64,000 nt of DNA from assembly GCA_963749705.1 (NCBI GenBank), contig CAVVNQ010000011.1:63634-127633 (forward strand), given 5' to 3'. Positions within the stretch are counted from its first letter, which is position 1; every line of letters begins with the position of its first letter. The notes under the pieces are model-generated. The model did no database searches, had not been told where the DNA came from, and saw only the letters and a program-made list of their open reading frames with translations. Shown here piece after piece: positions 31,909-64,000 of this stretch. The position numbers were made by a program, and so were the translations under genes. Source of the stretch: an uncultured Chloroflexia bacterium (GTDB taxonomy: Bacteria > Chloroflexota > Limnocylindria > Limnocylindrales > CSP1-4).

Positions 31909-32766
31909 TCAGCCGCCGGCGGCCGCGCCGGGTGCCCGGCCGGCCGCCCGTCGCGCAACCTCGATGAACGGGCGCAGGCGGCTGGTGACCTCCATCTCCG
32001 TGCGCCGGAACGCGGCCAGCCGCTGCTCGTCCGTGCCCTCGACCTCGGACGGGTCGTCGAGCCCCCAGTGGAGCGTGTTGGTCGAGCCCGGGAACACGGG
32101 ACACGTCTCCCGGGCTCGGTCGCAGACCGTGATCACGTAGTCGAACTGCTGGTCGAGGAACTCCGTGATCACCTTGCTGCGGGCCGCCGACCAGTCGATC
32201 CCCTGCTCCGCCAGGACGCGGACCGCGAACGGGTTGACGCGGGTCGCCTCGGTCCCCGCCGAGCTCACCTCGAAATCTGCGCCCCCATGGCGCTTGAGCA
32301 GCGCCTCGGCGATCTGGCTCCTCGCGGAGTTGTGGGTGCACACGAACAGCACGCGGATCGGGGCCACGGACACCTCCCTGCGGGTTGCGCGGCCGGCGGC
32401 CGCGATCGTCATCTGGAGATCCAGCAGCTGGCCCTCGAGCCGGTCCAGGTCGTCGCGCCGCCGGGCGATGACCCGTCGCTGCTCGGCGAGGACCGGCGCC
32501 AGCCCCGCGTCCATGGCGCCGTGCTCGAGGCACAGCCCGGCCAGCCGGCCGGCATCGCCCGGGGCCAGCCCAAGGCTGCGCAGCGCCACGACCAACCGAA
32601 GCCGGGCGAGATCGGCCTCGCCATAGGTGCGGTAGCCGTTGCCGGCCCGGCCGGGACGCGGCAGCACGCCCGACGCCTCGTACCAGCGCACGGCCGACGC
32701 CGCGACGCCGGCGCGACGGGCGAGCTCGGATACGCGCATGCCGCTGCGGCCCGACGTTCCGTCCAT
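31909..32766 (-). CDS. arsC: MerR-family HTH regulator fused to LMW-PTP-type arsenate reductase ArsC
   Basis: N-terminal 'VSELARRAGV...VRWYE..G...NGYR.Y'; C-terminal P-loop CTHNSARS, 'VCDRARETCPVFPG', 'HWGLDDP'. Confidence 0.9.
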   Translation of the reverse strand: MDGTSGRSGMRVSELARRAGVAASAVRWYEASGVLPRPGRAGNGYRTYGEADLARLRLVVALRSLGLAPGDAGRLAGLCLEHGAMDAGLAPVLAEQRRVIARRRDDLDRLEGQLLDLQMTIAAAGRATRREVSVAPIRVLFVCTHNSARSQIAEALLKRHGGADFEVSSAGTEATRVNPFAVRVLAEQGIDWSAARSKVITEFLDQQFDYVITVCDRARETCPVFPGSTNTLHWGLDDPSEVEGTDEQRLAAFRRTEMEVTSRLRPFIEVARRAAGRAPGAAAGG

Positions 32767-33534: not shown

Positions 33535-34044
33535 CTACCGGCGCGGGACGGCCACCCATTCGAGATAGCGGGCGTCGAACTCGGCGATGAGGCGCGCCCG
33601 TTCCTTCATCAGGGCGGCCCATTCGTCAAGCGTGGCGTACCCGGCCGGCGTGAGCTCGTAGTCCCGGCGCGCCGGACCGGTGCCCTCGGTCGACCACGAC
33701 GAGCGCACCTGGCCCGTCTCCTCGAGGTCACGCAGCGTCCGGTAGACCTGGCCGACGTCCACCGGGCCGTTGGTGATCCCCATCTGCCCCAGGTCGCCGA
33801 TGATCGCGTACCCGTGCGCGCCGCCGCCCGCGAGGATCGCGAGCACGAACGGCTCCATCCAGCGGTGGTGCCCGCCCAGCGGCGCCCAGCCGCGGTGGAT
33901 CGGAATGCCGGCCTCGTCGACGCCGGAGGCGATCCCGGGCGTCGTCTCGTCGGATGCGGCCTCACCGGGTCCGGAGGCGGCCTCGTCCTCCTCGACGTCC
34001 GGGATGACGTCGGCGGGTTGCGAAGCACGGCTCGTGGCACCCAT
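33535..34044 (-). CDS. PadR family regulator with acidic N-terminal extension
   Basis: 'AHGYAI', 'GQVYRTLRDLEE.G.V.S.W', 'RRDYELT..G'. Confidence 0.9.
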   Translation of the reverse strand: MGATSRASQPADVIPDVEEDEAASGPGEAASDETTPGIASGVDEAGIPIHRGWAPLGGHHRWMEPFVLAILAGGGAHGYAIIGDLGQMGITNGPVDVGQVYRTLRDLEETGQVRSSWSTEGTGPARRDYELTPAGYATLDEWAALMKERARLIAEFDARYLEWVAVPRR

Positions 34045-34106
34045 ATGCCGCTGGACTATAACCGGAGGATCGCGGCGCGGTCGGGCGACCGGACCGGCCA
34101 CGCGGA

Positions 34107-34601
34107 TCAGGCCTCCGGGACGCCGGGGTGCGCCATCGCCGCCGCCAGGAGCTCGTTGACGTCGGCGGTGACACCCTGCTCGACGAGCCGGATGTACGTC
34201 TCCTCCTCGGCGAGGTGGACCTTGAGCAGCGCGTAGAGCTGGAACACGACGCGCCGCAGCGCGATCGCGCGGCCGAGGGTGACGTGGCGGGTGTCGAGAT
34301 CCGCGGACAGCTTCACGATCTCGGCCACCAGCCGGCGGATCTGGTCGTGCTCGCGGCGCATGGGCGTCATCGAGTGCCGGTTCTGCATCATCCGCTCGAG
34401 CTCGGGGTAGATCGTGGCTTCCGAGGCCGTCACGTGCGGGAGCAGGGTGGTGTTGAGGAACGTGCCCAGCTGCTGGAGCTGCGTCCGCACCTGGTCCGCG
34501 GGTGCGGCCAGCAGCGAGTCGGCGATCTCCGGCATCTGGTTGACGTGGCGCAGGAGTCGCTCATGGTTGTCGTGCGTGACCTGCGGGAGGGTCTGGGTCA
34601 T
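34107..34601 (-). CDS. Hemerythrin-like domain protein
   Basis: H...PHxxxxE..IYP...REH...VHLAEEE diiron pattern; SD GAGGAG. Confidence 0.88.
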   Translation of the reverse strand: MTQTLPQVTHDNHERLLRHVNQMPEIADSLLAAPADQVRTQLQQLGTFLNTTLLPHVTASEATIYPELERMMQNRHSMTPMRREHDQIRRLVAEIVKLSADLDTRHVTLGRAIALRRVVFQLYALLKVHLAEEETYIRLVEQGVTADVNELLAAAMAHPGVPEA

Positions 34602-34673
34602 CGTGGTTCTCCTCGGTGGATCGGGGTCGGCGCGCTCAGCGGGCGGCCGGCATGGGTGCGTCGGCGGCGTCGG

Positions 34674-35879
34674 TCAAGCGGCTTCCTCCTCGGGCTGGTC
34701 AGCCAGCGCGGCGAAGAACAGGGCCACCGGCCGGTAGACCGCGTGGGCCAGCTTCATGAACGGGGCAAGCAGCACGAGCTCCAGGGCGACGGCGACGTGG
34801 ACCAGGAACACCCAGTAGCCCCAGGATGGCGCGCTGGGGAGGTACAGCGCGAGCTCCAGGACGAAGCCCGTGACGCCCGTGACCCACAGCAGGCCGAGGA
34901 GCATCCAGTCGGCGATCGTGGATCGGGTGACCGACCGGTTGGCCTTGCGGTAGCGGTCGAGGATGAGCACCGTGACGCCGTACACGAGCATCAGGCCCGC
35001 GACCGTGCCCAGGAGCCGGACGGGGTACCACAAGGGCACCGGTGTTCCCGTCTCCTTGACGCCGATCAGGGCAAGCCCGTAGTCCAGGCCGGTCGCCGCC
35101 AGCAGCCCGATGAAGCCCCACACGGTGATCGCATGGACGAGGCCGCGACGACGGAACCAGGGCACGTCCGTGGTGTCCGCGTCGCACTCGGCGCGGAACT
35201 GGGCCTGGCCCAGTGACTCGCGGCCGATCGCCACCCAGGCGGCGCGTGCCGATCGGCGGAGGGCGGCCCGGCTGCCGGCAACGGTCCGCAGGCCCACCTG
35301 TTCGCGCCTGGCGATCGCGCGCGCCATGCCGGCGATCCCGGCCAGCCCCGCGAGGACCACCAGGAGCATCACCACGATGCCCGTGTTGTGGATGAGCTCC
35401 TCGGGGATGAACTCGAAGATGGCCAGCGACTGGCCGCTCTGCGGGCCATGCGCGGAGTACATGAACAGGGCGAAGAATGCCGCCAGCAGCACCGCGAGAA
35501 CGACGGCGCCGGCGGGCCGGGTGTACATCGTCCAGGCGATCCGGGTGCGGTCATAGCTCGCGATCGCGTACCGGCGCGCGGCGGCCATGAACTCGCTGGG
35601 GTCGGCCTGCGTCGGGCACGTCTCGGCGCATTCGCCGCACTGGTAGCAGCTCCACAGCTCCTTGCTCGACAGCAGCGCGTCCTTCATGCCCACCTGCGCG
35701 TAGCGGATGATCCGGCGCGGGAACGCGGAGTCCGTCTCGGACAGCGGGCAGCTCGCGGTGCACGTGCCGCAGCTGAAGCAGGCGCTGATGTCCGTGGCGC
35801 CGAAGCGCTGGAGGTCCGAGTAGAGCCCGGTATCCACTCGCGTGGCCGCGGTGGTGACCGGCGGTGCGATGGCGGTCAT
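34674..35879 (-). CDS. QmoC-like subunit: HdrC-type 2x[4Fe-4S] domain fused to a NarI/HdrE-like membrane domain
   Basis: CFSCGTCTASCP and WSCYQCGECAETCP; TM helices carrying His (LVHAI, VHVA, KLAHAVYRP). Confidence 0.85.
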   Translation of the reverse strand: MTAIAPPVTTAATRVDTGLYSDLQRFGATDISACFSCGTCTASCPLSETDSAFPRRIIRYAQVGMKDALLSSKELWSCYQCGECAETCPTQADPSEFMAAARRYAIASYDRTRIAWTMYTRPAGAVVLAVLLAAFFALFMYSAHGPQSGQSLAIFEFIPEELIHNTGIVVMLLVVLAGLAGIAGMARAIARREQVGLRTVAGSRAALRRSARAAWVAIGRESLGQAQFRAECDADTTDVPWFRRRGLVHAITVWGFIGLLAATGLDYGLALIGVKETGTPVPLWYPVRLLGTVAGLMLVYGVTVLILDRYRKANRSVTRSTIADWMLLGLLWVTGVTGFVLELALYLPSAPSWGYWVFLVHVAVALELVLLAPFMKLAHAVYRPVALFFAALADQPEEEAA

Positions 35880-36127
35880 CAGGACACCCGCCCGGTGGGC
35901 TCGTACTGGAAGTAGCCGTCAACCGGCGTGGCCTTGATCTCGGCCAGCCACCCGTAGCGGCGCATGCCCATCACCCAGAACACCACCTCGTGGGTCGGGG
36001 CGTCGATCGCGGCGGCGATCTCGGGAACCGTCATCGGCCCGTCCCGGAGCGCGGCGAGGATGCGACCTCGCATCACCGGCTCGTCGCGAACGACCTCGCG
36101 AACCTCCCTGCCGTTCGGGTTCGTCAT
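35879..36127 (-). CDS. Small winged-helix protein
   Basis: 'ILAALRDGPMTVPEIAAAI...MRRYG...DGYFQY'; translationally coupled on both sides. Confidence 0.8.
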   Translation of the reverse strand: MTNPNGREVREVVRDEPVMRGRILAALRDGPMTVPEIAAAIDAPTHEVVFWVMGMRRYGWLAEIKATPVDGYFQYEPTGRVS

Positions 36128-37944
36128 GCCGGTACCTCCACCAGGCTCTCGATCATCGCGGTGACCTGGGCGTCGGTATAGCCGAGCAGGTCGATGGCGT
36201 TCTCTGGACACATCGGGACGCAGCCTCCGCATCCCTTGCAGCCGGTGGGGCTGATCACGGCGAAGTGCCGGTCACCCTCCTCGGCCATCGAGATCGCGTC
36301 GTACGGGCAGGCCGTGAGGCAGTCGCCGCACGCGGTGCAGGTCGCGGGATCCACGATCGCGACCAGCGGGTCAAGCTCCGTGAACCCCTTCTTGAGCACC
36401 GCGGCGCTCTGGGTCACGGCGGCCAGCCCCGAGGCCACGGACTCCGACGACGTCTTCGGACCCTGGCACGCGCCGGCGATCAGGACGCCGTCGACCACGG
36501 TCTCGACGGGACGGAGCTTGGGGTGGATCTCGTTGAAGAACCCGTCACTGCCCGCGGGCAGCTTGAGCACGTCCACCAGCGCCTGGTTGGCGCGCGGCAC
36601 CATGCCCGTCACGAGCACGACGAGGTCCACGGGCAGCGCGAGCTCCGTGCGCTCGGTCAGCAGGTCGGTGACGGTGACCGTCAGGCCACCATCCTCGCGC
36701 CGTTCGACGGCCGGCGGCGCGTCGTCGCCGAACTTGAGGAACACCGAACCGGCCTTCCGCGCCTCCGTGTACAGCGGCTCGAACTTGCCGTACGTGCGCA
36801 TGTCCCGGTACAGGTGGTACTGGCGGATGGCCGGGTCGAGGCCCGACACCTGGACCGCCGTCTGGACCGTCGCGGCGCAGCAGAACCGCGAGCAGTACGC
36901 GTTGGCGCACCCGGCGGTCCCGCGGCTGCCCACGCAGTACACGTAGGCAACGCTCCGGACGGGCCGCCCGTGCCACGCGAGCGGGCCGCTCGATCCGTCG
37001 ACGAGCTCCTTGAACTCGGGCAGCGTGACGACGCCTTCGATCCCGTAGCCCAGCTCCCCCACCTCGGGCTGGTAGCTGTCGAAGCCGGTGGCGACGACGA
37101 TCGACCCGACGGCGACCTGGATCGTCCCGGCGCCTTCGCCGCCGACCCGGATGGTCGCCTCGTAGTTGCCGAAGCTGCCGCTCTTGCCGACCATCTCCGC
37201 GCCCGTGAGCACGGTGATCGACGGTCGCTTGCGGATCTCGGCGACCAGCGTGGCCACCAGGTCGCGACCCTCACGATCGTGGGGGAACATCGGGCCGAAC
37301 CGGCCGACCCAGCCGCCCAGCTCGACCTCTCGCTCGACGAGCGTGACCCTGAGGCCGATGTCGGCGAGCCCGACCGCGGTGCGCAGGCCCGCGATCCCGC
37401 CGCCGATGACGAGCGTGTGGGGAATGGTGTCGACGACGAGCGGCACGAGCGGCACCGTGTTCCGCGTCCGGGAGATCCCGGCGCGAACGAGCGCGGTGGC
37501 CTTCTCGGTGGCGCCCGCCGGGTCGTCCGTGTGGACCCACGAGCACTGCTCCCGGATGTTGACCTGGGTGTACTCGTAGGGGTTGAGGCCGGCGCGCGAG
37601 GCGACCCCGCGGAACGTGTAGGTATGGAGCTTGGGCGAGCAGGACGCGACGACCAGGCCGTCGAGCGCGTTGCCTTCGATATCGGCAACCATCTCGGTCT
37701 GGGTGGCGTCGGAGCAGGCGAACATCTCGTGCTTCGCGACGACCACGTCGCCGGAATCACGGATGTCCGCGATCACCTTCTCGACATCGACGTAGTCGGA
37801 GATGTTGCCCCCGCAGTGGCACACATAGACGCCGATGCGGCGGCCACCGTCCGGGGACCCGGCACCCTCAACCGACATCTGAGACTCGCTTTCGGACGGA
37901 CGAGGCGACGCTCCTGCGAGCCATCGGCCGGAGGATTCGTTCAT
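36124..37944 (-). CDS. hdrA: HdrA family flavo-iron-sulfur protein
   Basis: IGVYVCHCGGNI, CSPKLH, NIREQCSW, GGGIAG, CVGSR..CSRFCC, C-terminal 2x[4Fe-4S]. Confidence 0.92.
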   Translation of the reverse strand: MNESSGRWLAGASPRPSESESQMSVEGAGSPDGGRRIGVYVCHCGGNISDYVDVEKVIADIRDSGDVVVAKHEMFACSDATQTEMVADIEGNALDGLVVASCSPKLHTYTFRGVASRAGLNPYEYTQVNIREQCSWVHTDDPAGATEKATALVRAGISRTRNTVPLVPLVVDTIPHTLVIGGGIAGLRTAVGLADIGLRVTLVEREVELGGWVGRFGPMFPHDREGRDLVATLVAEIRKRPSITVLTGAEMVGKSGSFGNYEATIRVGGEGAGTIQVAVGSIVVATGFDSYQPEVGELGYGIEGVVTLPEFKELVDGSSGPLAWHGRPVRSVAYVYCVGSRGTAGCANAYCSRFCCAATVQTAVQVSGLDPAIRQYHLYRDMRTYGKFEPLYTEARKAGSVFLKFGDDAPPAVERREDGGLTVTVTDLLTERTELALPVDLVVLVTGMVPRANQALVDVLKLPAGSDGFFNEIHPKLRPVETVVDGVLIAGACQGPKTSSESVASGLAAVTQSAAVLKKGFTELDPLVAIVDPATCTACGDCLTACPYDAISMAEEGDRHFAVISPTGCKGCGGCVPMCPENAIDLLGYTDAQVTAMIESLVEVPA

Positions 37945-40706
37945 GCCGGCACCATCTCGATCTCCTGGGTCTCGACTCTGGTGGCCTCGAGGTGGGCGGC
38001 GACCTGGGCCACCGCGGCGCCGGCGTGGAGGATCGAGTCGGCGATGTCCTTGGCGCCCGATGCGGCGCCCGCCACGTAGACCCCCGGGATGCTCGTCTGG
38101 CCGGGGTTGAGGTCCTCCTCGGGCTCGTCCACGTAGCTCCACTGGTCGAGCGAGAGCTCCTCGACCTCGAACAGCTGCTCCGCGTCGCGGTTGGGCTGGA
38201 CGCCCACGGCCAGCACGACCAGGTCGTACTCCGCCTCGACGATCCCGCCGCCGTTCTCGATGTCCTCGTACTTGAGCACGAGGTCGCCGTTGGGCAGCTC
38301 GCGGATGTCCGCGACGCGGCCCTTGACGTAGTTGGCGCCCATCGACTTCGCCTGCTCGTAGAACTCGTCGTACCGCTTGCCCGGTGCCCGGATGTCCATG
38401 TAGTGGACGGTCACGTCGGCCAGCGGCAGGGCGCCCATGAGCAGCTGGTTCTGCTTGATCGAGTACATGCAGCAGAACCGCGAGCACAGGGGATTGCCGA
38501 CCGTCTCGTCTCGCGAGCCGGTGCACAGGACGTAGGCGATCCGGTCCGGGACCTTGCCATCGCCGGGCCGGAGGATCGTGTTGAACGGCCGGGTGGGCGC
38601 CAGCAGGCGGTCCATCTGCATCCCGGTGATCACGTTCTTGAACCGGCCGAAGCCGTACTCCGGCTTGAGGTCGGCGGCGAACAGCTTGAAGCCGGTCGAC
38701 ACGACGACCGCGCCGACCTCGACGTCATGCTGCCTGTCTCGCGCGTGGAGGTCGATGCAGCCGTCGACCGGGCAGGCCGCGACGCACTCGGAGCACTCCG
38801 AGCACACGGCACAGTCGAGGCAGCGGCCGGCGGATTCGCGGGCCTCGGCCTCGGTCAGGGGCGCCTCCACCTCGCGGAAGTCGGTCGGGGCGGCAACGAG
38901 CGTCGTGCCCTCGGATGCCGTGCGCCGGAGCGAGTAGCTCTTCTGGCGGGCCAGCACCTGCTCCTTGTCGACCACCGGCAGGCGGTCGTCGAAGCCGTCC
39001 ATCGTCCCGCCGGTCAGCCAGCGGTCGATCATGTGCGCGGCTCGCCGGCCCTCGCCGACGGCGCGCGTGATGTCGGTCGGCCCGTGGACGACGTCACCCG
39101 CCGCGAACACGAACGGGGTCGCGGTCTGGCACGTGGCCGGATCGGCGACCAGCAGGCCGTTGGTGCTCGTCGCGAGCCCGCCGGCGAAGGCGCTGGTGTC
39201 GGCCTTCATTCCGATCGCGCTGACGATGACCTCGCACGGGATGACGAACTCGCTGCCGGGGATCGGCTCCGGCCGTCGACGTCCGGAGGCGTCGGGTGCA
39301 CCGAGCGCCATCCGGGTGCAGCGCAGCCCGTTGACGGCGCCATTCTCGTCACCCACCACCTCGGCCGGTGTGACCTGGAGGCTGAACACGGCGCCTTCCT
39401 TCTCGGCGTCGTCGGCCTCGACGTGGTGGGCCGGCATCTCGTCCCGACCGCGCCGGTAGGCGACGGTCACCGATGCCGCGCCCAGGCGGCGCGCGGTTCG
39501 GGCCACGTCCATGGCCACGTTGCCGCCACCGACGACGACCACGCGGCGGCCGGCGACGTCGAGCGGCTCGCCGAGCTTGACCTTGCGCAGGAAGTCGGTG
39601 CCACCGAGCACGCCCAGGCGGTCCTCGCCCGGCACGCCCAGGTTGGTCGAGCGGTTCGTCCCGGTCGCGACCAGCACGGCGTCGAAGCCGTCGGTCCTGA
39701 GGCCCTCGAGGTCGCGGACGGGGCTGCTCGTCGCGATCTCGACCCCGATCGCGCGCACGTTGTCGATGTCGCGCTCGACGACCGCCTCGGGCAGGCGGTA
39801 GGACGGGATCGCGAGCCGGAGGTAGCCGCCCGGCTCGGGGGCGGCCTCGAAGATCTTCACGCCGTAGCCCTTGCGGGCGAGCTGCCAGGCCGCCGTCAGG
39901 CCGGCAGGCCCGGAGCCGACGATGGCCACCCTTCGTCCGTTCGCCGGCGCGACGTCGATCCCGGGGCCGTCGCCCGTGGTGTCGTGCACATCCGAAACGA
40001 ACCGCTTGAGGCGCCGGATCGGCAGGGTGCCCTCGAGCGAGCCACGGGTGCACTCGGATTCGCACGGCGCGTAGCAGGCCCGCCCGAGCGTGCCCACCAG
40101 GGGCGTCGCCTCGAGCACGAGGCGATACGCCTTCTCGTACTCGCCGCTCCGGATGAGCGACACGTAGCCATGCGCCTGGATCCCCGCCGGGCAGGCGAAC
40201 GAGCACGGTGAGCTGCCGGCACGGTCGATGACCGCCTTCTTGGGCACCGCCTGCGGGAACGCGATGTACGCGGCGCGGCGGGCCACCAGGTCGGCGTTGA
40301 ACTGGTCGGGCACGGCGACGGTGCACGCGGTCTCGCACTTGGCGCAGCCCGTGCAGGTCGCCTCGTCGACGTAGCGCGCCTTCTGGGTGACGGAGGCGTG
40401 GAAGCGGCCGTCCGCGGACCGCCGGATCCCGTCCACCCGGCTGTAGGTCATGGCCGTGATGTTCGGGTGGTGGATCGTCGCCGCCATCTTGGGCGTCGAG
40501 ATGCAGCTCGCGCAGTCGAGGGTCGGGAACACCTTGCTGAGCAGGATCATCTTCCCGCCCACGCTGGCTTCCTTCTCGACCAGCAGGACCTTGTAGCCCA
40601 TGTCGCCGAGCTTGAGGGCGGACTCCATGCCGCCGATGCCGCTGCCCACGACGAGGACGTCGTACCGCTCGCCGGCGGTCTCGGGCAGGTCGCAGGTCTG
40701 GGTCAT
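37941..40706 (-). CDS. Large HdrA (HdrL-like) with inserted GltD/NfnB-type NAD(P)H oxidoreductase module
   Basis: GSGIGG, FPTLDCASC, CxxCxxCxxxC, PCSFACP/GRACYAPCESEC, GSGPAG, GGGNVA..YRR, CTGSR..CSRFCC. Start may be GTG 40715. Confidence 0.9.
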   Translation of the reverse strand: MTQTCDLPETAGERYDVLVVGSGIGGMESALKLGDMGYKVLLVEKEASVGGKMILLSKVFPTLDCASCISTPKMAATIHHPNITAMTYSRVDGIRRSADGRFHASVTQKARYVDEATCTGCAKCETACTVAVPDQFNADLVARRAAYIAFPQAVPKKAVIDRAGSSPCSFACPAGIQAHGYVSLIRSGEYEKAYRLVLEATPLVGTLGRACYAPCESECTRGSLEGTLPIRRLKRFVSDVHDTTGDGPGIDVAPANGRRVAIVGSGPAGLTAAWQLARKGYGVKIFEAAPEPGGYLRLAIPSYRLPEAVVERDIDNVRAIGVEIATSSPVRDLEGLRTDGFDAVLVATGTNRSTNLGVPGEDRLGVLGGTDFLRKVKLGEPLDVAGRRVVVVGGGNVAMDVARTARRLGAASVTVAYRRGRDEMPAHHVEADDAEKEGAVFSLQVTPAEVVGDENGAVNGLRCTRMALGAPDASGRRRPEPIPGSEFVIPCEVIVSAIGMKADTSAFAGGLATSTNGLLVADPATCQTATPFVFAAGDVVHGPTDITRAVGEGRRAAHMIDRWLTGGTMDGFDDRLPVVDKEQVLARQKSYSLRRTASEGTTLVAAPTDFREVEAPLTEAEARESAGRCLDCAVCSECSECVAACPVDGCIDLHARDRQHDVEVGAVVVSTGFKLFAADLKPEYGFGRFKNVITGMQMDRLLAPTRPFNTILRPGDGKVPDRIAYVLCTGSRDETVGNPLCSRFCCMYSIKQNQLLMGALPLADVTVHYMDIRAPGKRYDEFYEQAKSMGANYVKGRVADIRELPNGDLVLKYEDIENGGGIVEAEYDLVVLAVGVQPNRDAEQLFEVEELSLDQWSYVDEPEEDLNPGQTSIPGVYVAGAASGAKDIADSILHAGAAVAQVAAHLEATRVETQEIEMVPA

Positions 40707-40711
40707 GGCCG

Positions 40712-41155
40712 TCACCTCGTCACCGCCGGGCCGAGCGCGGCGAGGGCCGTCGAGAAGCCCTGGACATGCCGCGTGAATGGCTCGGCGCAGACCGAGCAGA
40801 TGGCCGCCATCCGCAGCCGCTGCGGATCGATCCCGAGCTCGCGCATCCGTGCCTGCGACTGGCTCATGATCCGCGAGGACCGTTCGGCGCAGTCGGGCAG
40901 GTAGGCGCATTCGTCCCCGTCGGATGCGACGAACACGCCGTCGAACCCGGTCTGCAGCGCATGCAGGATCCACGCCGGGCGGATCCCGCTCGTGCACGGC
41001 AGGCCGATGACGTCGACGCCCGGCGAGTAGTGCATGTGCGAGCTGCCGGCCAGGTCGATCCCCGGGTCGGAGATGTTGTTCGTGGAGAACACGAGGATCC
41101 GGGGCACGAAGGTGTCTCCGGGAGCTCGCGGCTCGGTCTCGACGGGGGCGGTCAT
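40712..41155 (-). CDS. mvhD: MvhD/FlpD-like subunit with altered Cys pattern
   Basis: 'RILVFSTNNISDPGIDLAG...LPCTSG...ALQTGFDGVFV...GIDPQRL'. Confidence 0.82.
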   Translation of the reverse strand: MTAPVETEPRAPGDTFVPRILVFSTNNISDPGIDLAGSSHMHYSPGVDVIGLPCTSGIRPAWILHALQTGFDGVFVASDGDECAYLPDCAERSSRIMSQSQARMRELGIDPQRLRMAAICSVCAEPFTRHVQGFSTALAALGPAVTR

Positions 41156-41218
41156 CGGATTGCGGCTCCTTGGCCGGGTCCGCGGGGCGCGTGCGCGCCC
41201 CGCGTCGGCCGAAACGGG

Positions 41219-41479
41219 TTACTTGCGGCGAATGACGAGCACGCGGTCGTAGCCTTCGGCTGCGATCGTGCCCAGGAACTCGTGGCCGACCTTGGCCGAC
41301 CAGGCGCCGATGTCGGTCTTGGTAACCGGATCGGTTGACCAGATCTCGATCACGGAGCCGACGGGAACGGTGCCCATCCCCTTCTTGGCCTCGAGCAGCG
41401 GGCCGGGGCAGGCGGCGCCACGGGCGTCGATGACCTTGGCGGCCTGGATGGTCTCGAGCTCGGCAAGTGTTGCTGTCAT
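41219..41479 (-). CDS. tusA: TusA family sulfur carrier
   Basis: 'IDARGAACPGP', 'STDP...DI.AW...GHE'. Confidence 0.93.
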   Translation of the reverse strand: MTATLAELETIQAAKVIDARGAACPGPLLEAKKGMGTVPVGSVIEIWSTDPVTKTDIGAWSAKVGHEFLGTIAAEGYDRVLVIRRK

Positions 41480-41493
41480 CGGAATTCGATCTC

Positions 41494-41865
41494 CTAGTAG
41501 ACGAGGCTGTTGGTTGCGGACGTGATCTCGGCCACGAAGCGGCCGGCGGCCACGACCTCGGCGCCGGCGACCAGGTCGTCCGGTGCGACGATGCCGCGGC
41601 TGTTGATGCAGGGGCCGCAGACGAGCAGCTGCGCGCCCAGCTCCCGGACGTCGTCGAGGAGCCTGGCCAGCGGCGGGAAGCCGTCGGCCGCGACCGTTTC
41701 CGCGACGCCGCGCCGGACGAGCTCGACGCCGTTGGCCTGAAACCCGAGCACGACGGCGACGTCAGAGGCCAGCGCCGCCCCCGCCATCACGAACGGGATC
41801 GTCGCGTGCTCCGGGTGGTCCGGCCCGTGCGTCACCATGAACACGAGCTTTTCCGCGTCGGCCAT
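41494..41865 (-). CDS. DsrE family sulfur-relay protein
   Basis: 'THGPDHPEHATIPF', 'LVCGPC'. Confidence 0.88.
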   Translation of the reverse strand: MADAEKLVFMVTHGPDHPEHATIPFVMAGAALASDVAVVLGFQANGVELVRRGVAETVAADGFPPLARLLDDVRELGAQLLVCGPCINSRGIVAPDDLVAGAEVVAAGRFVAEITSATNSLVY

Positions 41866-41902
41866 GAACGGTGCTCCTTGCCTTGCGCTCCGAACGGAGC
41901 TG

Positions 41903-42310
41903 TCAGATGAACAGGACCTGGCCGCCCTCGGCGGCCATGAGGAAGGTGGCGATGCCGCCCGAGTCGTCGACCAGCGGGTCGAGCGTCGTGGCGTCGATGC
42001 CCAGCACCTCGAGCGACCCTGCGCAGGCCAGGATCGAGACCTCGCCCAGCTCCTTGGCCATCCGGAACGTATCGAGCCACGGGATCGCGGCCGTCCCCGC
42101 GACGGGCTTGGTCCTGCCGGGTGCCCCGGCGTCGAAGGCGAGGCCCTGGTCCGCGTCGATCCGCTCGGACCGGAACGCGTCGAGCGCCCAGTACTGGAGC
42201 AGGATGTTGACCGGGCGGTCCATGGCTGCCGCGCCCGCGGCCAGCGTCGCGGCGGCGTGCAGCTTGTCTGCGGTGCCGGAGAACAGGACGATGGACAGGG
42301 TGTCGCTCAC
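41903..42310 (-). CDS. DsrE2/DrsE-like protein
   Basis: 'SIVLFSGTADK...GAAAM...WAL', 'ILAC', 'GIATFL..A...LFI'; GTGA-coupled to arsR. Confidence 0.88.
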   Translation of the reverse strand: MSDTLSIVLFSGTADKLHAAATLAAGAAAMDRPVNILLQYWALDAFRSERIDADQGLAFDAGAPGRTKPVAGTAAIPWLDTFRMAKELGEVSILACAGSLEVLGIDATTLDPLVDDSGGIATFLMAAEGGQVLFI

Positions 42311-42690
42311 GGATGACCTACCTGGCTGGGGGTGACGGGCTCGCGTCGCGGGAGATCCGTCGTGGGTGTGGCGCGCGCGGCGGCGTTGGCGAGGTCGCCC
42401 ATCGACGACAGGCGGCGGACGAGGACGGCGCGCATGAGCTCGCAGGCGGCGAGGATCTCGGGGTCGCTGAGGCCATATCGAACGGAGCGCCCCTCGCGGG
42501 TCGCCTCGACGAGCCCGACTGCACGCATCGAGCCCAGGTGCTGCGAGACCGTCGCCTGCCCCATGCCGAGCTCGCGGGCCAGCTCGTTGACCTCGCGCGA
42601 CCGCTCGCCCAGCAGCTGGACGATCCGCAGCCGGTGCGGGCTGGCGAGCGCGCGCAGGAGCGACGTCTGGATCTGGTCGATCTCCGTCAT
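42307..42690 (-). CDS. ArsR/SmtB family regulator with a single C-terminal Cys (candidate persulfide sensor)
   Basis: 'LRALASPHRLRIV...VSQHL..MR..GLV...REG...Y...ILAACELMR'. Confidence 0.9.
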   Translation of the reverse strand: MTEIDQIQTSLLRALASPHRLRIVQLLGERSREVNELARELGMGQATVSQHLGSMRAVGLVEATREGRSVRYGLSDPEILAACELMRAVLVRRLSSMGDLANAAARATPTTDLPRREPVTPSQVGHP

Positions 42691-42870
42691 CTCGCTGGCC
42701 GTACCTCGCCGTTACATCTCTCGAGATATTCATGCACCATGCATGTGTGCACTGCTGGTATATGTCATCGACACTTATAAGGTACGGGTCATCTGTCACC
42801 TGAACGGCCCGCGGTCCCGGGTTCCGGCGGGCCATCCGGATCGGCGGGTCGTGCCCCAACGGCCCATCCG

Positions 42871-42894
42871 ACATCTCAGCGCAGCGTGAGATGT
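42871..42894. promoter_or_regulatory. Inverted repeat ACATCTCA-N8-TGAGATGT, candidate ArsR operator
   Basis: Perfect 8-bp arms immediately upstream of the second arsR. Confidence 0.65.
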
Positions 42895-42901
42895 TTCACC
42901 C

Positions 42902-43231
42902 GTGACCACACCACTGCCCGTGATCCCCACGCCCCGGCTGGACCTGCCGGCACCCGACGTGTCCGCGGCGTCCGCGGCTGCGGCCCTGCTCGCCGACCCG
43001 GTGCGGGCCGGAATCCTGCACCTGCTCGCCGACGGGCCGCACTGCGTGTGCGAGCTTGCGGCGACGCTGGGCGCGCGCGAGAACAACGTCAGCAACCACC
43101 TGGCGCGGCTCCGTGACGCGGGCCTCGTGCGGGCCAGCCGCCACCAGGCGAACGCGCGCTTCCTGTACTACGAGCGCGACGACGATGCGGTGGCGGGGGC
43201 ACGCGCCGCGCTCGACGAGGTGCTGCGGTGA
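42902..43231 (+). CDS. arsR: ArsR family As(III)-type regulator
   Basis: Alpha3 motif HCVCEL; '[14 protein letters not shown]'. Confidence 0.88.
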
Positions 43232-44268
43232 CGGTCATCGCGGTCCGCCGTCCGCACCTCCCGCTGGGACTCATCGTCGCCCTGGCCGCGGTCGCCTGGG
43301 TCGTCGCATGGCAGGTCAACCTGCCCGCCGCGGACTGGCTCGCGTACCACGGGCTCGGGCTCGAGCGCGGGTCGCAGGCCGGCGACGCGATCGCGTTCTT
43401 CGCCTACGACGTGCCCAAGGTGCTGCTGCTGCTCACCGGGATCGTCACCGTCGTGTCGTTCCTGCGCTCGTTCGTGTCGCCCGAGCGTGTGCGGCGAACG
43501 CTCGCCGGCCGTGGTGTCCTACCCGGCACCGTAGCCGCCGCCGGCTTCGGCGTCCTGACGCCGTTCTGCTCGTGCTCGGCGGTCCCGCTGTTCATCGGGT
43601 TCGTCGAGGCGGGCGTCCCTCTGGGCGTCACGTTCGCGTTCCTGGTGGCCAGCCCGATGGTCAACGAGGTTGCCCTGGTCCTGCTGTGGGGCCTGTTCGG
43701 ACCCTCGATCGCGATCGCCTACATGGCGGCCGGGCTCGCGGTCGCGATCGCGGCCGGGCTGCTCATCGGCCGGCTCGGGCTTGAGCGGTATGTCGAGGAC
43801 TACGTGTGGGCGATCCGGGCCGGCGCCGGCATCGCCGACGTCCGTCCCACCCTGGACGAGCGTGTTCGCGACGCCTGGCGATCCACCGTCGATATCGTGC
43901 GCCGGGTATGGCCGTTCGTCGTGGCCGGGATCGCCGTCGGCGCCCTGATCCACGGGTTCGTGCCCACGTCCCTGGTGGTGGAGCTCGGCGGCCGCGACAA
44001 CCCGGTCGCCGTGCCGGCGCTGGTGGCCCTCGGCGTCCCGCTGTACAGCAACGCGGCCGGCACGATCCCGGTGATCGAGGCGCTCCTGGGCAAGGGGCTC
44101 CCGCTCGGGTCGGCGCTCGCGTTCATGATGGCCGTCACGGCGCTGTCCTTCCCCGAGCTGGTCATCCTGCGTCGGGTCATGAAGCCGCGGCTGCTGGCCG
44201 CGTTCGTCGTCATCGTCGCCGCCGGCATCCTGGCCGTCGGCTACGGGTTCAACCTGTTCCTCGCCTGA
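43228..44268 (+). CDS. DUF318 / ArsP family permease
   Basis: '[10 protein letters not shown]', 'ASPMVNE', '[10 protein letters not shown]', 'ALSFPE'. Confidence 0.92.
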
Positions 44269-59073: not shown

Positions 59074-61314
59074 TCAGGCGCCGTCCGCCTTCTCCGCGCC
59101 ATTGACCAGCAAGCTGTATGGCTGGTACAGCGTGCTGCTCTCGGACGCCGGGATTCCGGAGACGATGGCCACGACCTTCGCGTAGCCTGCCAGGGCTGCC
59201 AGGTCAGCACCCGACAGCGTGTAGTCGTTCGCCGACGACAGGGTCGGTCGAACGACCTGCACGGAAGCTCCAGCGGTCACGTCACCGTAGGGGTCGACCG
59301 TGCCGTTGATGCCCACCACGGCGAGTCCGAAGGTGAGCGGCAGCGGGCTGAAGAATTTCAGGTTATCCCAACCGGTGAGGTCGCCCGGCGTGCCGAGATC
59401 GACGCCATCGAGCTGGATGTTCTTGACATGCCATCCATCGAACTCGACCGCCGGGTCGGTCATCAGCCGGAAGGCGATGTAGTCCGATCCTGCCGGCAGA
59501 GCGGGGCACGTCACGTGCACCGGCGCGCCGGCGCTGCCGGCTGTATCGGTGTATCCGGGCATGTTGGCCACGATGCTCGGGATCGCCCCCGGATCATGAT
59601 CCGAGGTCGTGCCGTCGCAGGCCAGCGACTGCCAGGTCTGGCCATCATCGGTCGAAACCTGGACGAAGCCATAGTCCCAGCCGAGCTCCATGGCGTAGAA
59701 ATGGTCGAAGCTCAGAACCTCGCCATCATGGCCCGCCACACTGCGGGCGATGCTGACGTCCGCGTTATCAGCATAGTGATCGGTCCCCGACACGTCGGGA
59801 TTGGTGAAGTAGCCGTCACTGTCAACGACCCACTGCGGGCCTGACGGGTACACGAACTCGTCAGCGCCGTTGAACACCACTGACGAGAGAGCGGCGCCCG
59901 AGCCGAGGTCGATGTAGTCCGAGCCCCACGGTGGGGCACCCGGGGTGTCATTTGCCTCGGGCGTGAAGTTGATCGTCGCCTCGGTCGCTGCGTTCTGGAA
60001 GTCAGCCGCTGCACCTCCGCTCACGCTGGCCCCGTTGTCGAGGTAGCCGTCGACCAGTGCCGCGATCTCATTGTTGGCAAACAGGTCAGCGAATGTCGAG
60101 CTGATCCCGAAGTCGGCGAGCGTCGCGTTCAGGCCAGCGATGCCGTCGGCCTGGTTGTGCTGCCATGCGTGGAAGAAGTCCCGGCCTAGCCCTTGGCCGT
60201 TGAGGTAGTTCATGAAGAACATGGCGTTGCCGTAATCAGCCAGGATCTCGCCAGGTCCCTGGTCGCCCCACGCCGTCAGGCCATTCTCCGGTCCGCTGTC
60301 GTAGGTGATCGGGTTCCAATCCGGATGGAAGACGCTCAGCCACCCAAGGAAGGCCTGGGTGTGGCTGTCATACCCCTTCTCGTCAACGTGACGATCGAGG
60401 TGGGCGTATCCGGTGATGACCTCGGTGAAGTCACTCAGGCCCTCGTTGACCCAGCTCGGCTCGCTCGGATCGGTGTAGTGGTGCAGCAGGTGCTGGTACT
60501 CGTGCGCGAAGACGCCCTCGTACAGGTTGGGCCGCGCCGGCGCGCTCGTGCACGGATCGGTCGTGGGCTCGTGTGGCGGATCATCACCGGTTCGGTGGAG
60601 CCAGTCCCACGAGTCGACGGACATGACGGTCCGGTCGAAGTAGTCGTCGAACACCGAGTAGAAGAAGCCGGCAATGTATGAGTTGGTGTGCTCGTTGTTC
60701 GGGTCGTAGTAGTTGTCGTCGCGGACGTTGTCCACCAGCACGACGACGTTGTCACCCTCGCCCCGGTAATAGCTCTGTGGCAGACCGAGCTGCTTCGCGA
60801 GAACGGCCTTGTTGCCCTTGCGATTCGGCGGAGTGCTCCACCAGTCCGACTCGATCGGGTACATGTTGTTGTCGAACTGATCGATTAGGTAGTTGACCTG
60901 ATCGTTGGTAATGACGTTTCGAACGCCGTCGTTCCGGCAATCGGTATAGGTGAACGGCGTCCCCGTCCTCGGATCAATCTGGCCTTCGACCGGGAAGTTG
61001 AGGTTGGTGGCAACCCAGACCTCCGCATGCACGCCGACGGCACGAAGCGTGTAGTTCTTGAGATAGATGACGCCGCGTGTATCGTCGAGCGCCAGCCACG
61101 TCTTCGTATCGCCGATGCTGGCCGGGCCGAGCGGCGGGTTGGCATTGCGGACGTCCGCCCGGTCCATCGGCAGGACTTCGCCGCCATTGAAGTTGGGGGT
61201 GTCCTGCTTCGGTGTGGCGTCACGGATCGGCTTTGCGGCGGCCGCCGTTCCGACGAGCGACAGCAGCAGGATCGCGCTCGTCAGCACGACCAAGGGTCTA
61301 CGTAGCGTTCTCAA
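59074..61314 (-). CDS. Secreted zinc metallopeptidase (M30/M6 immune inhibitor A-like)
   Basis: Signal peptide; HEYQH...WVNEGLS; C-terminal 'WDYGFV' InhA-type domain; TTG start after GGAGG. Confidence 0.88.
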   Translation of the reverse strand: MRTLRRPLVVLTSAILLLSLVGTAAAAKPIRDATPKQDTPNFNGGEVLPMDRADVRNANPPLGPASIGDTKTWLALDDTRGVIYLKNYTLRAVGVHAEVWVATNLNFPVEGQIDPRTGTPFTYTDCRNDGVRNVITNDQVNYLIDQFDNNMYPIESDWWSTPPNRKGNKAVLAKQLGLPQSYYRGEGDNVVVLVDNVRDDNYYDPNNEHTNSYIAGFFYSVFDDYFDRTVMSVDSWDWLHRTGDDPPHEPTTDPCTSAPARPNLYEGVFAHEYQHLLHHYTDPSEPSWVNEGLSDFTEVITGYAHLDRHVDEKGYDSHTQAFLGWLSVFHPDWNPITYDSGPENGLTAWGDQGPGEILADYGNAMFFMNYLNGQGLGRDFFHAWQHNQADGIAGLNATLADFGISSTFADLFANNEIAALVDGYLDNGASVSGGAAADFQNAATEATINFTPEANDTPGAPPWGSDYIDLGSGAALSSVVFNGADEFVYPSGPQWVVDSDGYFTNPDVSGTDHYADNADVSIARSVAGHDGEVLSFDHFYAMELGWDYGFVQVSTDDGQTWQSLACDGTTSDHDPGAIPSIVANMPGYTDTAGSAGAPVHVTCPALPAGSDYIAFRLMTDPAVEFDGWHVKNIQLDGVDLGTPGDLTGWDNLKFFSPLPLTFGLAVVGINGTVDPYGDVTAGASVQVVRPTLSSANDYTLSGADLAALAGYAKVVAIVSGIPASESSTLYQPYSLLVNGAEKADGA

Positions 61315-61534
61315 GGGTCCGCCTCCATTGCAAGCGAGTTATGACGCAGGTGGTCGAAAGCGTGCGTGAGTGGCCTGAAGCAGTACCTCCTCCCCGCTCG
61401 GTACCCGATGAGTCGAGCGCCGCTGCACCCAACATGCATGAAGCTCCGGTGAAAGGAACTCTAGGAATCCAAGGGGGCCATCGCAACCGGGGTCCGAAAG
61501 CTTGCGGTGCATGCCGACAACGGGACTGGAATGT

Positions 61535-61564
61535 GCGAGGGCCCGCCATGTGGCGGGCCCTCGC
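61535..61564. terminator. Hairpin downstream of the upstream peptidase gene
   Basis: gcgagggcccgcca-tg-tggcgggccctcgc. Confidence 0.7.
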
Positions 61565-61594
61565 GCGATCCGTTCGGCTGCAGTAGGAGAGCCC

Positions 61595-63718: not shown

Positions 63719-64000
63719 CTGAATCTCCTCCTTCAAATGCTGCACGACCGGCAGGCGAGGACTCCGATGACGCCGCGATTTCCTCCGGACCGCGGCGGAC
63801 TCACCACGAACCAACTGGTTCTCGAGTTCCGGACATCCCCACTCCCCCAAGCTCGACTGGTGCCGGCGTGCGGTGTGCGCGACCCAGGGCGGGTCGCGCC
63901 AGCAGGAGCCAAGGATACCCAAGCCGCTCCTGCTTCGTCCCGCTTCTCCCGGGAAGAGCGTTGCCAGCCGTCACCACCGGCCGATGAGCCTGACGGCGGC

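Follow-up and report, generated by a model that had tools for sequence, protein, structure and literature searches.

Several complexes built around HdrA-like flavoproteins have been described. In the canonical QmoABC of sulfate reducers and green sulfur bacteria (PMC10504309), two HdrA-like flavoproteins, an MvhD module and a membrane fusion of an HdrC-like 2x[4Fe-4S] domain with a dihaem b domain join the quinone pool to a cytoplasmic sulfur reaction. A further group, "type II Qmo" of Ammonifex degensii and "Ca. Vulcanisaeta moutnovskia", has HdrA-like QmoAB(C) proteins and also occurs without Dsr or Apr, and its role is called unclear by the authors (Neukirchen et al. 2023, PMC10504309). The sHdr systems are organized as sHdrC1B1AHC2B2 (type I) or sHdrC1B1AHB3-etfAB-emo (type II) and are accompanied by LbpA; type II is known chiefly from Chloroflexota, Actinobacteriota and Bacillota, and menaquinone has been proposed to receive its electrons (PMC11094781). 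Finally, HdrL of Desulfobacterium autotrophicum and its relatives is an HdrA with a second NAD(P)H/FAD module, often adjoining MvhD (PMC12142623). Here we analysed a stretch of 64,000 nucleotides (hereafter, the window) from the genome of an uncultured Chloroflexia bacterium (GCA_963749705.1, contig CAVVNQ010000011.1), in which genes for two HdrA-like subunits and a QmoC-like membrane subunit form one operon with genes for the sulfur carriers TusA, DsrE and DsrE2. The operon is real and conserved, and it occurs in soil and freshwater bacteria.

The operon lies on contig C11 of a 22-contig, 3.6-Mb assembly (88.18% complete, 1.32% contamination), and the window, with 69-74% G+C along most of its length, corresponds to C11:63634-127633. 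Ten same-strand genes run without interruption on the minus strand from 42690 down to 34107 in the order arsR-dsrE2-like-dsrE-tusA-mvhD-hdrL-hdrA-wHTH-qmoC-like-hemerythrin, where wHTH denotes a winged helix-turn-helix protein. Based on Pfam and NCBIfam matches, all ten co-oriented genes named in the first-pass annotation were recovered within the limits it gave. Its description of overlapping stops and starts applies to four of the ten junctions (arsR/dsrE2, hdrL/hdrA and hdrA/wHTH by 4 nt, wHTH/qmoC by 1 nt), while the remaining ones are gaps of 5-72 nt.

The redox part of the operon begins with mvhD (40712..41155), here a gene of its own, which encodes an MvhD/FlpD-like [2Fe-2S] electron-transfer protein of 147 amino acids (aa) (PF02662, FlpD, E 3.6e-28) with invariant C120 and C123 and near-invariant C54, C83 and C89. 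The next gene, hdrL (37941..40706; an alternative GTG start is possible at 40715), encodes an HdrL-type flavoprotein of 921 aa (Pyr_redox_2 1.1e-42, Fer4_20 5.8e-18; PRK12771 475.6 bits, HdrA2 454.5 bits), whose HdrA-like FAD/[4Fe-4S] core is interrupted by an NfnB/GltD/StnC-like FAD-NAD(P)H module with additional Fe-S clusters. Residues 165-641 matched solved chains of the NfnB/StnC/GltD type (9bov, 8oh5, 9n5u, 4ylf, 5jca) at E 1e-54 to 1e-111, and residues 630-916 matched residues ~290-580 of methanogen HdrA (8rvu, 5odc). Both dinucleotide-binding Pfam signatures were found, and the NAD(P)H module and the Fe-S motifs are intact. In the published HdrL, too, an HdrA core with an inserted glutamate-synthase-small-subunit/NfnB-like module is encoded next to mvhD. 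The operon differs in having a second HdrA, a QmoC-like anchor and sulfur carriers, and in belonging to aerobic or facultative soil and freshwater lineages. The same residues of HdrL resemble subunits of NfnAB and StnABC (165-641 against 8oh5_C, 9n5u_A, 4ylf_B and 5jca_L, E 1e-71 to 1e-111), but the NfnB-type module is nested in an HdrA fold and is not paired with NfnA.

The second flavoprotein gene, hdrA (36124..37944), encodes an HdrA-like (QmoB-like) protein of 606 aa (NCBIfam HdrA2, 464.3 bits) with an N-terminal cluster domain (C42, C44, C77, C102), an FAD domain (C337/351/355/356) and a C-terminal 2x[4Fe-4S] ferredoxin domain. Its best solved relatives are HdrA chains of the PDB (E 1e-104). 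It is translationally coupled to the wHTH gene (35879..36127), which is in turn coupled to qmoC. The wHTH protein (82 aa) has no cysteine, belongs to no Pfam family and gave weak Pfam HTH matches only. No sequence relative was found for it among solved structures; its AlphaFold2 model (pLDDT 89.8) is a minimal winged helix that returned only generic ArsR/MarR-type matches in a fold search. A profile of this protein recovered 516 representatives at E<=1e-3 among 1.84 billion sequences, nearly all of them 65-136 aa long. The qmoC-like gene (34674..35879) encodes a membrane subunit of 401 aa (NF038018 211.1 bits, cut-off 300; Nitrate_red_gam 9.1e-5) consisting of an HdrC-like 2x[4Fe-4S] domain with eight invariant cysteines in two motifs and six hydrophobic segments with conserved His164/249/361/379, a dihaem b arrangement of the NarI/HdrE-like type.

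Among solved structures, the two HdrA-like subunits (E 1e-96 to 1e-104) are closest to the MvhAGD-HdrABC and Fdh-MvhD-HdrABC complexes of methanogens (5odc, 8rvu, 7bkb), as is the HdrC-like part of the QmoC-like membrane subunit. The operon differs from these complexes in that HdrB and the hydrogenase or formate dehydrogenase modules are missing and the complex is membrane-anchored.

Upstream of the redox genes lie those of the sulfur carriers. The tusA gene (41219..41479) encodes a TusA sulfur carrier of 86 aa (PF01206, E 4.4e-17) with the active-site motif Cys24-Pro-Gly-Pro, in which C24, P25, G26 and P27 are retained in 66/66 sequences. The dsrE gene (41494..41865) encodes a DsrE-family sulfur transferase of 123 aa (PF02635, E 3.1e-16), and both cysteines of its Cys83-x2-Cys86 motif are retained in 27/27 sequences. 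The dsrE2-like gene (41903..42310) starts with a GTG that overlaps the arsR stop and encodes a soluble sulfur transferase of 135 aa without a hydrophobic segment; its PF13686 match (E 9.7e-10) is partial, covering profile positions 3-51 only, and Cys96 is retained in 47 of 48 sequences. The sulfur carriers are the only conserved candidates for a cytoplasmic substrate of the complex.

The first-pass annotation had proposed an NAD(P)H- and quinone-linked, possibly bifurcating oxidoreductase acting on protein-bound sulfane sulfur, and the architecture agrees with this: one HdrA-like subunit has an NfnB/GltD-type NAD(P)H module, a QmoC-type subunit faces the quinone, and TusA, DsrE and DsrE2 keep their cysteines. 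We suggest the following scheme. MvhD, HdrL, HdrA and QmoC would form a membrane-anchored, QmoABC-like electron-transfer complex in which HdrL and HdrA make up an HdrA-like pseudo-dimer, possibly with the wHTH protein as an additional subunit. The cytoplasmic partner would be not APS (adenosine 5′-phosphosulfate) reductase but the persulfide on Cys24 of TusA, loaded via DsrE and DsrE2. Electrons would move between NAD(P)H, bound by the NfnB-like module of HdrL, the chain of HdrA-type flavins and Fe-S clusters, and the menaquinone pool, reached via QmoC. The net reaction would be TusA-S-SH + 2e- + 2H+ <-> TusA-SH + H2S. An ArsR repressor bound to a palindrome upstream of its own gene might be released via Cys83 when sulfide or persulfide rises. 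The gene content, the cofactor motifs, the conserved synteny, the lack of Apr, Dsr, HdrB and LbpA and an ArsR paralogue on an SQR operon are observed; TusA as the substrate carrier, the reaction, the signal of the regulator and the direction are inferred. That the complex is an NAD(P)H- and menaquinone-linked oxidoreductase of TusA-bound sulfane sulfur seems to us an evenly balanced proposition. As to the direction, reduction for sulfane-sulfur detoxification or as an electron sink is suggested tentatively, and oxidation with electron harvest into menaquinone is rather unlikely. It is also conceivable, though unlikely, that the complex is a flavin-based bifurcating or confurcating sulfane-sulfur oxidoreductase, in which menaquinone (downhill, via QmoC) and NAD(P)+ (uphill, via HdrL) would share the electrons from TusA persulfide or sulfide, or the reverse.

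To assess the conservation of the operon, a QmoC alignment was scanned against one genome per species, which gave 581 relatives; the best 80 were used. These 80 loci were picked by likeness to a mostly tusA-linked query alignment and hence are not an unbiased sample of QmoC-like genes. Counts refer to the 59 loci with 8.5 kb or more of upstream sequence, the other 21 being too short for inclusion. In 58 of these 59, tusA and mvhD both precede the QmoC-like gene. A second hdrA is present in 58, the wHTH gene in 56, a DsrE or DsrE2 gene in 53, the long HdrL in 45, a short form in 13 and arsR in 32. The sole exception, L125, has none of the operon genes. In this survey of synteny, non-conservation of the carrier genes, which would have spoken against the first-pass annotation, was thus not observed. 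HdrL relatives were at least 79% identical in all of the clusters listed, which number at least 120. Conservation of the operon is far above chance.

The carriers include Chloroflexota/Limnocylindrales, Bacillota, Gemmatimonadota, Dormibacteraeota and metagenome-assembled genomes (MAGs) of Ignavibacteriaceae, as well as the Actinomycetota Nanopelagicales, Cellulomonas, Actinotalea, Phycicoccus and Dermatophilaceae. The source names of close relatives include "Chloroflexota bacterium" and "Candidatus Limnocylindrales bacterium". A cultured carrier is Pengzhenrongella phosphoraccumulans M0-14, with a complete genome (locus L132), described as a facultatively anaerobic type strain. Within the phylum of the host, a QmoC-like match was found in 19/401 sampled genomes, namely in 10 of 23 genomes of the family and in 3 of 16 of a second family of the class among others, and in 18 loci from those genomes the order arsR-(dsrE2)-(dsrE)-tusA-mvhD-hdrL-hdrA-wHTH-qmoC is kept across the class. 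Beyond the core, the flanks of eight phylum-diverse loci have in common only additional DsrE2 and ArsR genes; a rhodanese gene and a metallo-beta-lactamase-fold gene were each seen once. In three further phyla, DsrE2 stands directly downstream of qmoC. Since the flanks vary between phyla and the core is constant, the carriers and the redox genes appear to act as one unit.

In one genus and in more distant members, HdrL is replaced by a short QmoA-like protein that matches HdrL residues 16-173 and 630-906 only. A FastTree phylogeny of 85 QmoC-like sequences, rooted on two apr-linked ones, placed the short forms at the base and the long form in the crown, where Actinomycetota, Bacillota, Gemmatimonadota and Dormibacteraeota are nested among Chloroflexota. 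The tree carries no support values and some of its "short" labels are truncated loci, so that only its broad picture is used here. Because the basal short form keeps tusA although it lacks the NAD(P)H module, the link to the sulfur carriers appears older than that to NAD(P)H. The ancestral partner of the complex would thus be sulfur bound to the carriers and not NAD(P)H.

These data bear on a sulfur-independent explanation, in which the complex is an NAD(P)H:menaquinone oxidoreductase that might also use ferredoxin and might bifurcate electrons as FixABCX or NfnAB do, and TusA, DsrE and DsrE2 supply or repair Fe-S sulfur or have a regulatory role. The long form indeed has a full path from the NfnB-type NAD(P)H/FAD site to the quinone-facing dihaem subunit, for which a sulfur substrate is unnecessary, and no sulfur-active site is visible. 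The last gene of the operon could also be read in this way. It encodes a hemerythrin-like di-iron protein of 164 aa (34107..34601; PF01814, E 2e-13), a member of a family that includes Fe-S repair proteins, and its His/Glu ligand positions are invariant in 32/32 sequences, although the match to RIC is weak (19.3 bits). The gene follows the operon in 26 of the 59 loci, all of them of the Chloroflexota lineage, and is a lineage-specific accessory gene. On the other hand, the basal short form, seen in 13 of the 59 loci, keeps tusA and mvhD without the NAD(P)H module, and a sulfur-free complex of this kind would be left without a cytoplasmic donor or acceptor. Moreover, dedicated carriers with invariant active-site cysteines in 58 of 59 loci across phyla would be unusual for Fe-S supply. 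We consider the sulfur-independent function somewhat unlikely.

The regulator of the operon provides further evidence on both sides of this question. The arsR gene (42307..42690) encodes an ArsR/SmtB-family protein of 127 aa (Pfam HTH_5 E 9.3e-14; NF033788 79.6 bits). The first-pass annotation described it as Cys-containing, and it has exactly one cysteine, C83, in the C-terminal helix region, which is invariant in 32/32 orthologues including that of the window. Its best solved relatives are Rv0081, CmtR and SqrR, and the nearest of them, Rv0081, is not a sulfide sensor, in agreement with the sulfur-independent explanation. Persulfide sensors of the SqrR/BigR type have two conserved cysteines, one in helix alpha2 and one near the C-terminus, which become joined by a di- or polysulfide. 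When aligned to SqrR, the operon ArsR has Gln at the position of the proximal cysteine and is thus not a two-Cys sensor of this type; the invariance of C83 leaves room for a different thiol-based mechanism.

An ArsR paralogue with 53% identity and the same cysteine heads another operon of the same genome, arsR-dsrE2-tusA-dsrE2-tusA-SQR, located on contig C4 (C4:269432-272622; locus L139 7430-10622, minus strand). This operon encodes a DsrE2-like protein, TusA, a full-length DsrE2, a second TusA with the CPGP motif and an SQR/FCSD-type flavoprotein. Within this one genome, the paralogue connects both the regulator subfamily and carriers of these types with the handling of sulfide, which argues against the sulfur-independent explanation. 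A further tusA-dsrE pair is found on contig C15, close to a metallo-beta-lactamase-fold gene.

An AT-rich palindrome at 42759..42779 (TATAAGTGTC-GAT-GACATATA, minus strand) lies 69 nt before the start of arsR and is a candidate operator for the arsR product. Similar TATA..G-N-C..TATA palindromes were observed upstream of arsR in many orthologous loci. In the 3.6-Mb genome of 71% G+C, the pattern occurs only at the two copies of the operon and at one unlike site; CATATA/TATATG has 16 occurrences genome-wide. A perfect inverted repeat, ACATCTCA-N8-TGAGATGT (42871-42894), precedes a second arsR (arsR2) and occurs only here and at the C15 copy. A search of the genome for a regulon with this repeat and the arsR palindrome found no members beyond the two operon copies. 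Divergent from the operon (42871-44268, plus strand) are the genes for this second ArsR (109 aa) and an ArsP_1-family permease (346 aa), a pair that is also close to the cluster in loci L095, L101 and L105. A promoter and terminator scan gave no promoter-like and two terminator-like sites, and shuffled sequences gave no fewer.

Of the described systems, canonical Qmo can be compared directly, since two Chloroflexota control loci, L056 (G355) and L057 (G211), carry sat-aprB-aprA-qmoA-qmoB-qmoC with AprA scores of 963 and 1014 bits. The dissimilatory APS reductase pathway is thus present elsewhere in the phylum. The operon shares with canonical Qmo the two HdrA-like flavoproteins and a subunit in which an HdrC-like Fe-S domain is joined to a dihaem membrane domain, and differs in other respects. 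The QmoC of L056 scores 400.6 bits against NF038018, while the QmoC-like protein of the operon stays at 211.1, under the cut-off, and shares 29-30% identity with the apr-linked QmoC proteins of this phylum. In L056 and L057, QmoB carries MvhD as a C-terminal domain (VhuD match, residues 575-712), whereas the operon has a separate mvhD upstream of hdrL. The QmoA-like subunit of the operon contains an NfnB-type NAD(P)H module, and the tusA, dsrE, dsrE2 and winged-helix genes are additional to the canonical set; L056 and L057 are without tusA. It should be noted that the NCBIfam HdrA models are top-scoring for the operon subunits and for true QmoAB alike and do not discriminate between them.

It is also worth asking whether the operon is an ordinary Qmo or Mvh-Hdr module whose partner, be it APS reductase, HdrBC or an Mvh-type hydrogenase, has its genes at another site or in the 12% of the genome missing from the assembly. 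In favour of this are the completeness of 88.18% and the usual role of MvhD, which normally joins a hydrogenase to HdrA, together with the two [NiFe] hydrogenases of the genome. Nevertheless, neither aprBA nor sat was found beside the operon or in the genome. AprA gave a best match of only 18.5 bits in the 88% complete genome. In the genome, DsrA had no match, and ATP sulfurylase and a YeeE/YedE transporter were not found. The 81 genomes sampled from the class, of which 70 are 90% complete or better, yielded neither AprA nor DsrA, although 15 carry the QmoC-like gene; the 14 control genomes of this AprA search included no positive, but the same model gives 963-1014 bits on true AprA. Both hydrogenases lie on other contigs without an Mvh-like context: that on C6 is membrane-bound with its own cytochrome b, and that on C4 has an NAD-binding Fe-S subunit. 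As the true sat-aprBA-qmoABC clusters of the phylum are also distinct, in QmoC score and identity, in the MvhD-QmoB fusion and in the absence of tusA, an ordinary module with a remote partner is highly improbable.

The C4 hydrogenase deserves mention in its own right. Its cytosolic large subunit is encoded at C4:280498-284775 (locus L142 4499-8776) beside a 688-aa Fe-S protein with Fer4_22, NAD_binding_1 and DHODB domains, ~8 kb from the SQR operon, a layout reminiscent of NADP-coupled "sulfhydrogenase"-type enzymes.

An HdrB-type partner is also missing from the genome: no CCG gene stands near an HdrA, and the HdrA-like matches above 40 bits are confined to the two operon copies. CCG domains were found in four genes, two for Fe-S membrane proteins of 690-710 aa beside ETF genes and two for FAD-oxidase fusions. 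The former, with two CCG domains each (C2:204587-206719 and C7:185263-187344), resemble ETF:menaquinone oxidoreductases; one adjoins acyl-CoA dehydrogenase and etfBA, and the other is near a sarcosine/dimethylglycine-oxidase-like protein fused to an ETF domain. The GCV_H (GcvH) family is represented by one gene, on another contig, without an LbpA partner. Within the window, 61 open reading frames (ORFs), part of its total, were scanned, and among these there was no CCG protein, hydrogenase, AprAB, DsrAB or GcvH-like protein. To this extent the absence of HdrB, hydrogenase, Apr, Dsr and a lipoate-binding protein from the window, as noted by the first-pass annotation, holds. AprAB or HdrBC encoded in the genome as phylogenetic partners of these subunits would have spoken against its reading; at 88% completeness, the check for aprAB, dsrAB, sat, hdrB and lbpA found no such partner.

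These observations concern the comparison with sHdr, too. Like sHdr clusters, the operon encodes an HdrA-like flavoprotein together with TusA and DsrE-type sulfur transferases; it differs in having no sHdrB (CCG), LbpA or EtfAB/EMO, and in having a QmoC-like membrane link and a second HdrA-like subunit with an NAD(P)H module. An analogue of type II sHdr-EtfAB-EMO is nevertheless imaginable, which would oxidize sulfane sulfur bound to TusA/DsrE past the persulfide, to sulfite, and pass electrons to menaquinone and NAD(P)+. The carrier set (TusA plus DsrE-type) is of the kind seen in sHdr clusters, and type II sHdr is known from the same phyla (PMC11094781). The host has SQR and two haem-copper oxidases, which indicate an aerobe. 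Furthermore, an sHdr-type cluster is strongly induced during persistence in a member of the Chloroflexota, Thermomicrobium roseum (PMC6776052). What makes this oxidation to sulfite quite unlikely is that sHdrB1, the proposed catalytic subunit with CCG noncubane clusters, and LbpA are missing from the operon and the genome, and that no component of the operon is able to add oxygen to sulfur.

Thus, the view of the first-pass annotation that the operon differs from both sHdr and QmoABC/Apr is borne out by the lack of sHdrB, LbpA and Apr and by the lower score of the QmoC-like protein (211.1 versus 400.6 bits). Its claim of an undescribed system is only partly upheld. A search of the literature, based on term-matched passages of main texts, found no description of a tusA/dsrE-linked HdrA-QmoC operon, but HdrL fusions (PMC12142623) and type II Qmo (PMC10504309) have been published. 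Type II Qmo, compared here by its published description, resembles the operon in that its Qmo-type proteins are nearer to HdrA and occur also in organisms that lack Dsr and Apr. The passages of the main text consulted mention neither a TusA/DsrE link nor an NAD(P)H insert, and supplementary figures 11-13 of that paper may show such neighbourhoods (PMC10504309).

Returning to the proposed oxidoreductase of TusA-bound sulfane sulfur, several points weigh against it. Based on Pfam and NCBIfam, the operon proteins contain no CCG/HdrB, AprA, DsrAB, molybdopterin or rhodanese domain, that is, no known sulfur-active site, and for this reason the proposal is held at an even balance and not above it. 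In an alignment of 43 full-length relatives, HdrL has 22 invariant or near-invariant cysteines, all of which belong to Fe-S motifs; the conserved positions include C65/C68, C118/121/124/128, C168/172/211/215/219, six from C629 to C645, and C728/741/745/746. The invariant cysteines of HdrA also lie within Fe-S motifs, C493 excepted. Canonical Qmo is a pure electron-transfer module, so that persulfide chemistry would be a new activity. The absences from the genome are not proven, given its completeness. The co-occurrence of the cluster with SQR is weak: among the 81 class genomes, SQR was found in 9 of 15 with the cluster and in 23 of 66 without it, and all five short-form genomes are without SQR. 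As these genomes are kin, no statistics were drawn from the counts. A search for fusions found 16 longer TusA-containing proteins in databases. The TusA-MvhD and TusA-MvhD-HdrL fusions among them (P0130, P0133, P0136) look like internal deletions or frameshifted calls and were not used as evidence of a link. An ArsR-TusA fusion (P0127) may be a read-through call and was likewise set aside.

Transcript data give a hint that the operon is transcribed in close relatives, without implying levels. Three metatranscriptome libraries of one study contained 25-34% of the sampled words of the operon, and RNA contigs at least 95% alike cover it from arsR to hemerythrin. Individual contigs join dsrE2 and arsR to the leader (42185-42734), tusA, dsrE and dsrE2 (41404-41926), hdrL and mvhD (40575-41044), and qmoC, wHTH and hdrA (35872-36293). 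The bins at 31.0-33.5 kb and 43.0-46.0 kb are near-empty in the RNA libraries and are both covered by a DNA run. Uncovered parts of the RNA contigs (e.g., 39517-40017, runs X2 and X4) are uninformative. Here too there is a reservation, since the contigs were those retrieved with this stretch, many are 96-97% alike, and they may come from relatives with other flanks.

If the complex does couple TusA-bound sulfur to NAD(P)H and menaquinone, it would be a missing piece of cytoplasmic sulfane-sulfur metabolism and would give HdrA/Qmo modules a third kind of partner, besides heterodisulfides and APS reductase. Limnocylindria-type Chloroflexota and the actinobacterial carriers are recorded as MAGs from soil, freshwater and sediment, where sulfur handling is usually inferred from SQR, PDO, Sox, Dsr or sHdr genes only, and such a complex would be overlooked by current marker-gene surveys. 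If the bifurcating variant were true, it would represent a new energy-coupled route between reduced sulfur, quinone and pyridine nucleotide pools for soil and freshwater heterotrophs, aerobic or facultative, from several phyla, with two bifurcation-type flavins and no HdrB-type catalytic site. Since the cultured P. phosphoraccumulans M0-14 has the same gene set, the question is directly testable.

The whole region is found a second time in the assembly. Contig C15 carries it in the same gene order with 91.5% nucleotide identity across 18.4 kb, within ~100 kb of C11-C15 synteny at 85-96% identity (C15:434651-515241). The operon proteins of the two copies are 89.5-99% identical, and both copies are intact. 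Seven other contig pairs duplicate 7.7-20 kb at 91.7-99.7%, and each of the other three genomes of the genus has a single copy. Because other small contigs duplicate pieces of large ones and the genus relatives are single-copy, the two copies would represent two co-assembled related populations and not a duplication in one cell, although this is not proven. Copy numbers in this assembly should thus be read with care.

Downstream of the operon, a gene for a PadR-family regulator (33535..34101, minus strand; PF03551 1e-13, domain from residue 86 of the longest ORF) begins 5 nt past the hemerythrin gene. It is retained downstream in some Chloroflexota loci, and its membership in the operon is uncertain. 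It is followed by genes for a MerR-LMWP fusion, a DinB-like protein, a DUF2461 protein and an ABC exporter. The first of these (31909-32766, minus strand) is a 285-aa protein in which a MerR DNA-binding domain is fused to a low-molecular-weight phosphatase (LMWP)/ArsC-like domain; its gene also follows the operon in L060 and in the C15 copy. At the other end of the window, past the end of the C15 synteny, G+C drops to 62-64% (59074-63922, minus strand), and the ORFs of this region include one of 746 aa without a Pfam match and one of 775 aa with an InhA-like MAM domain.

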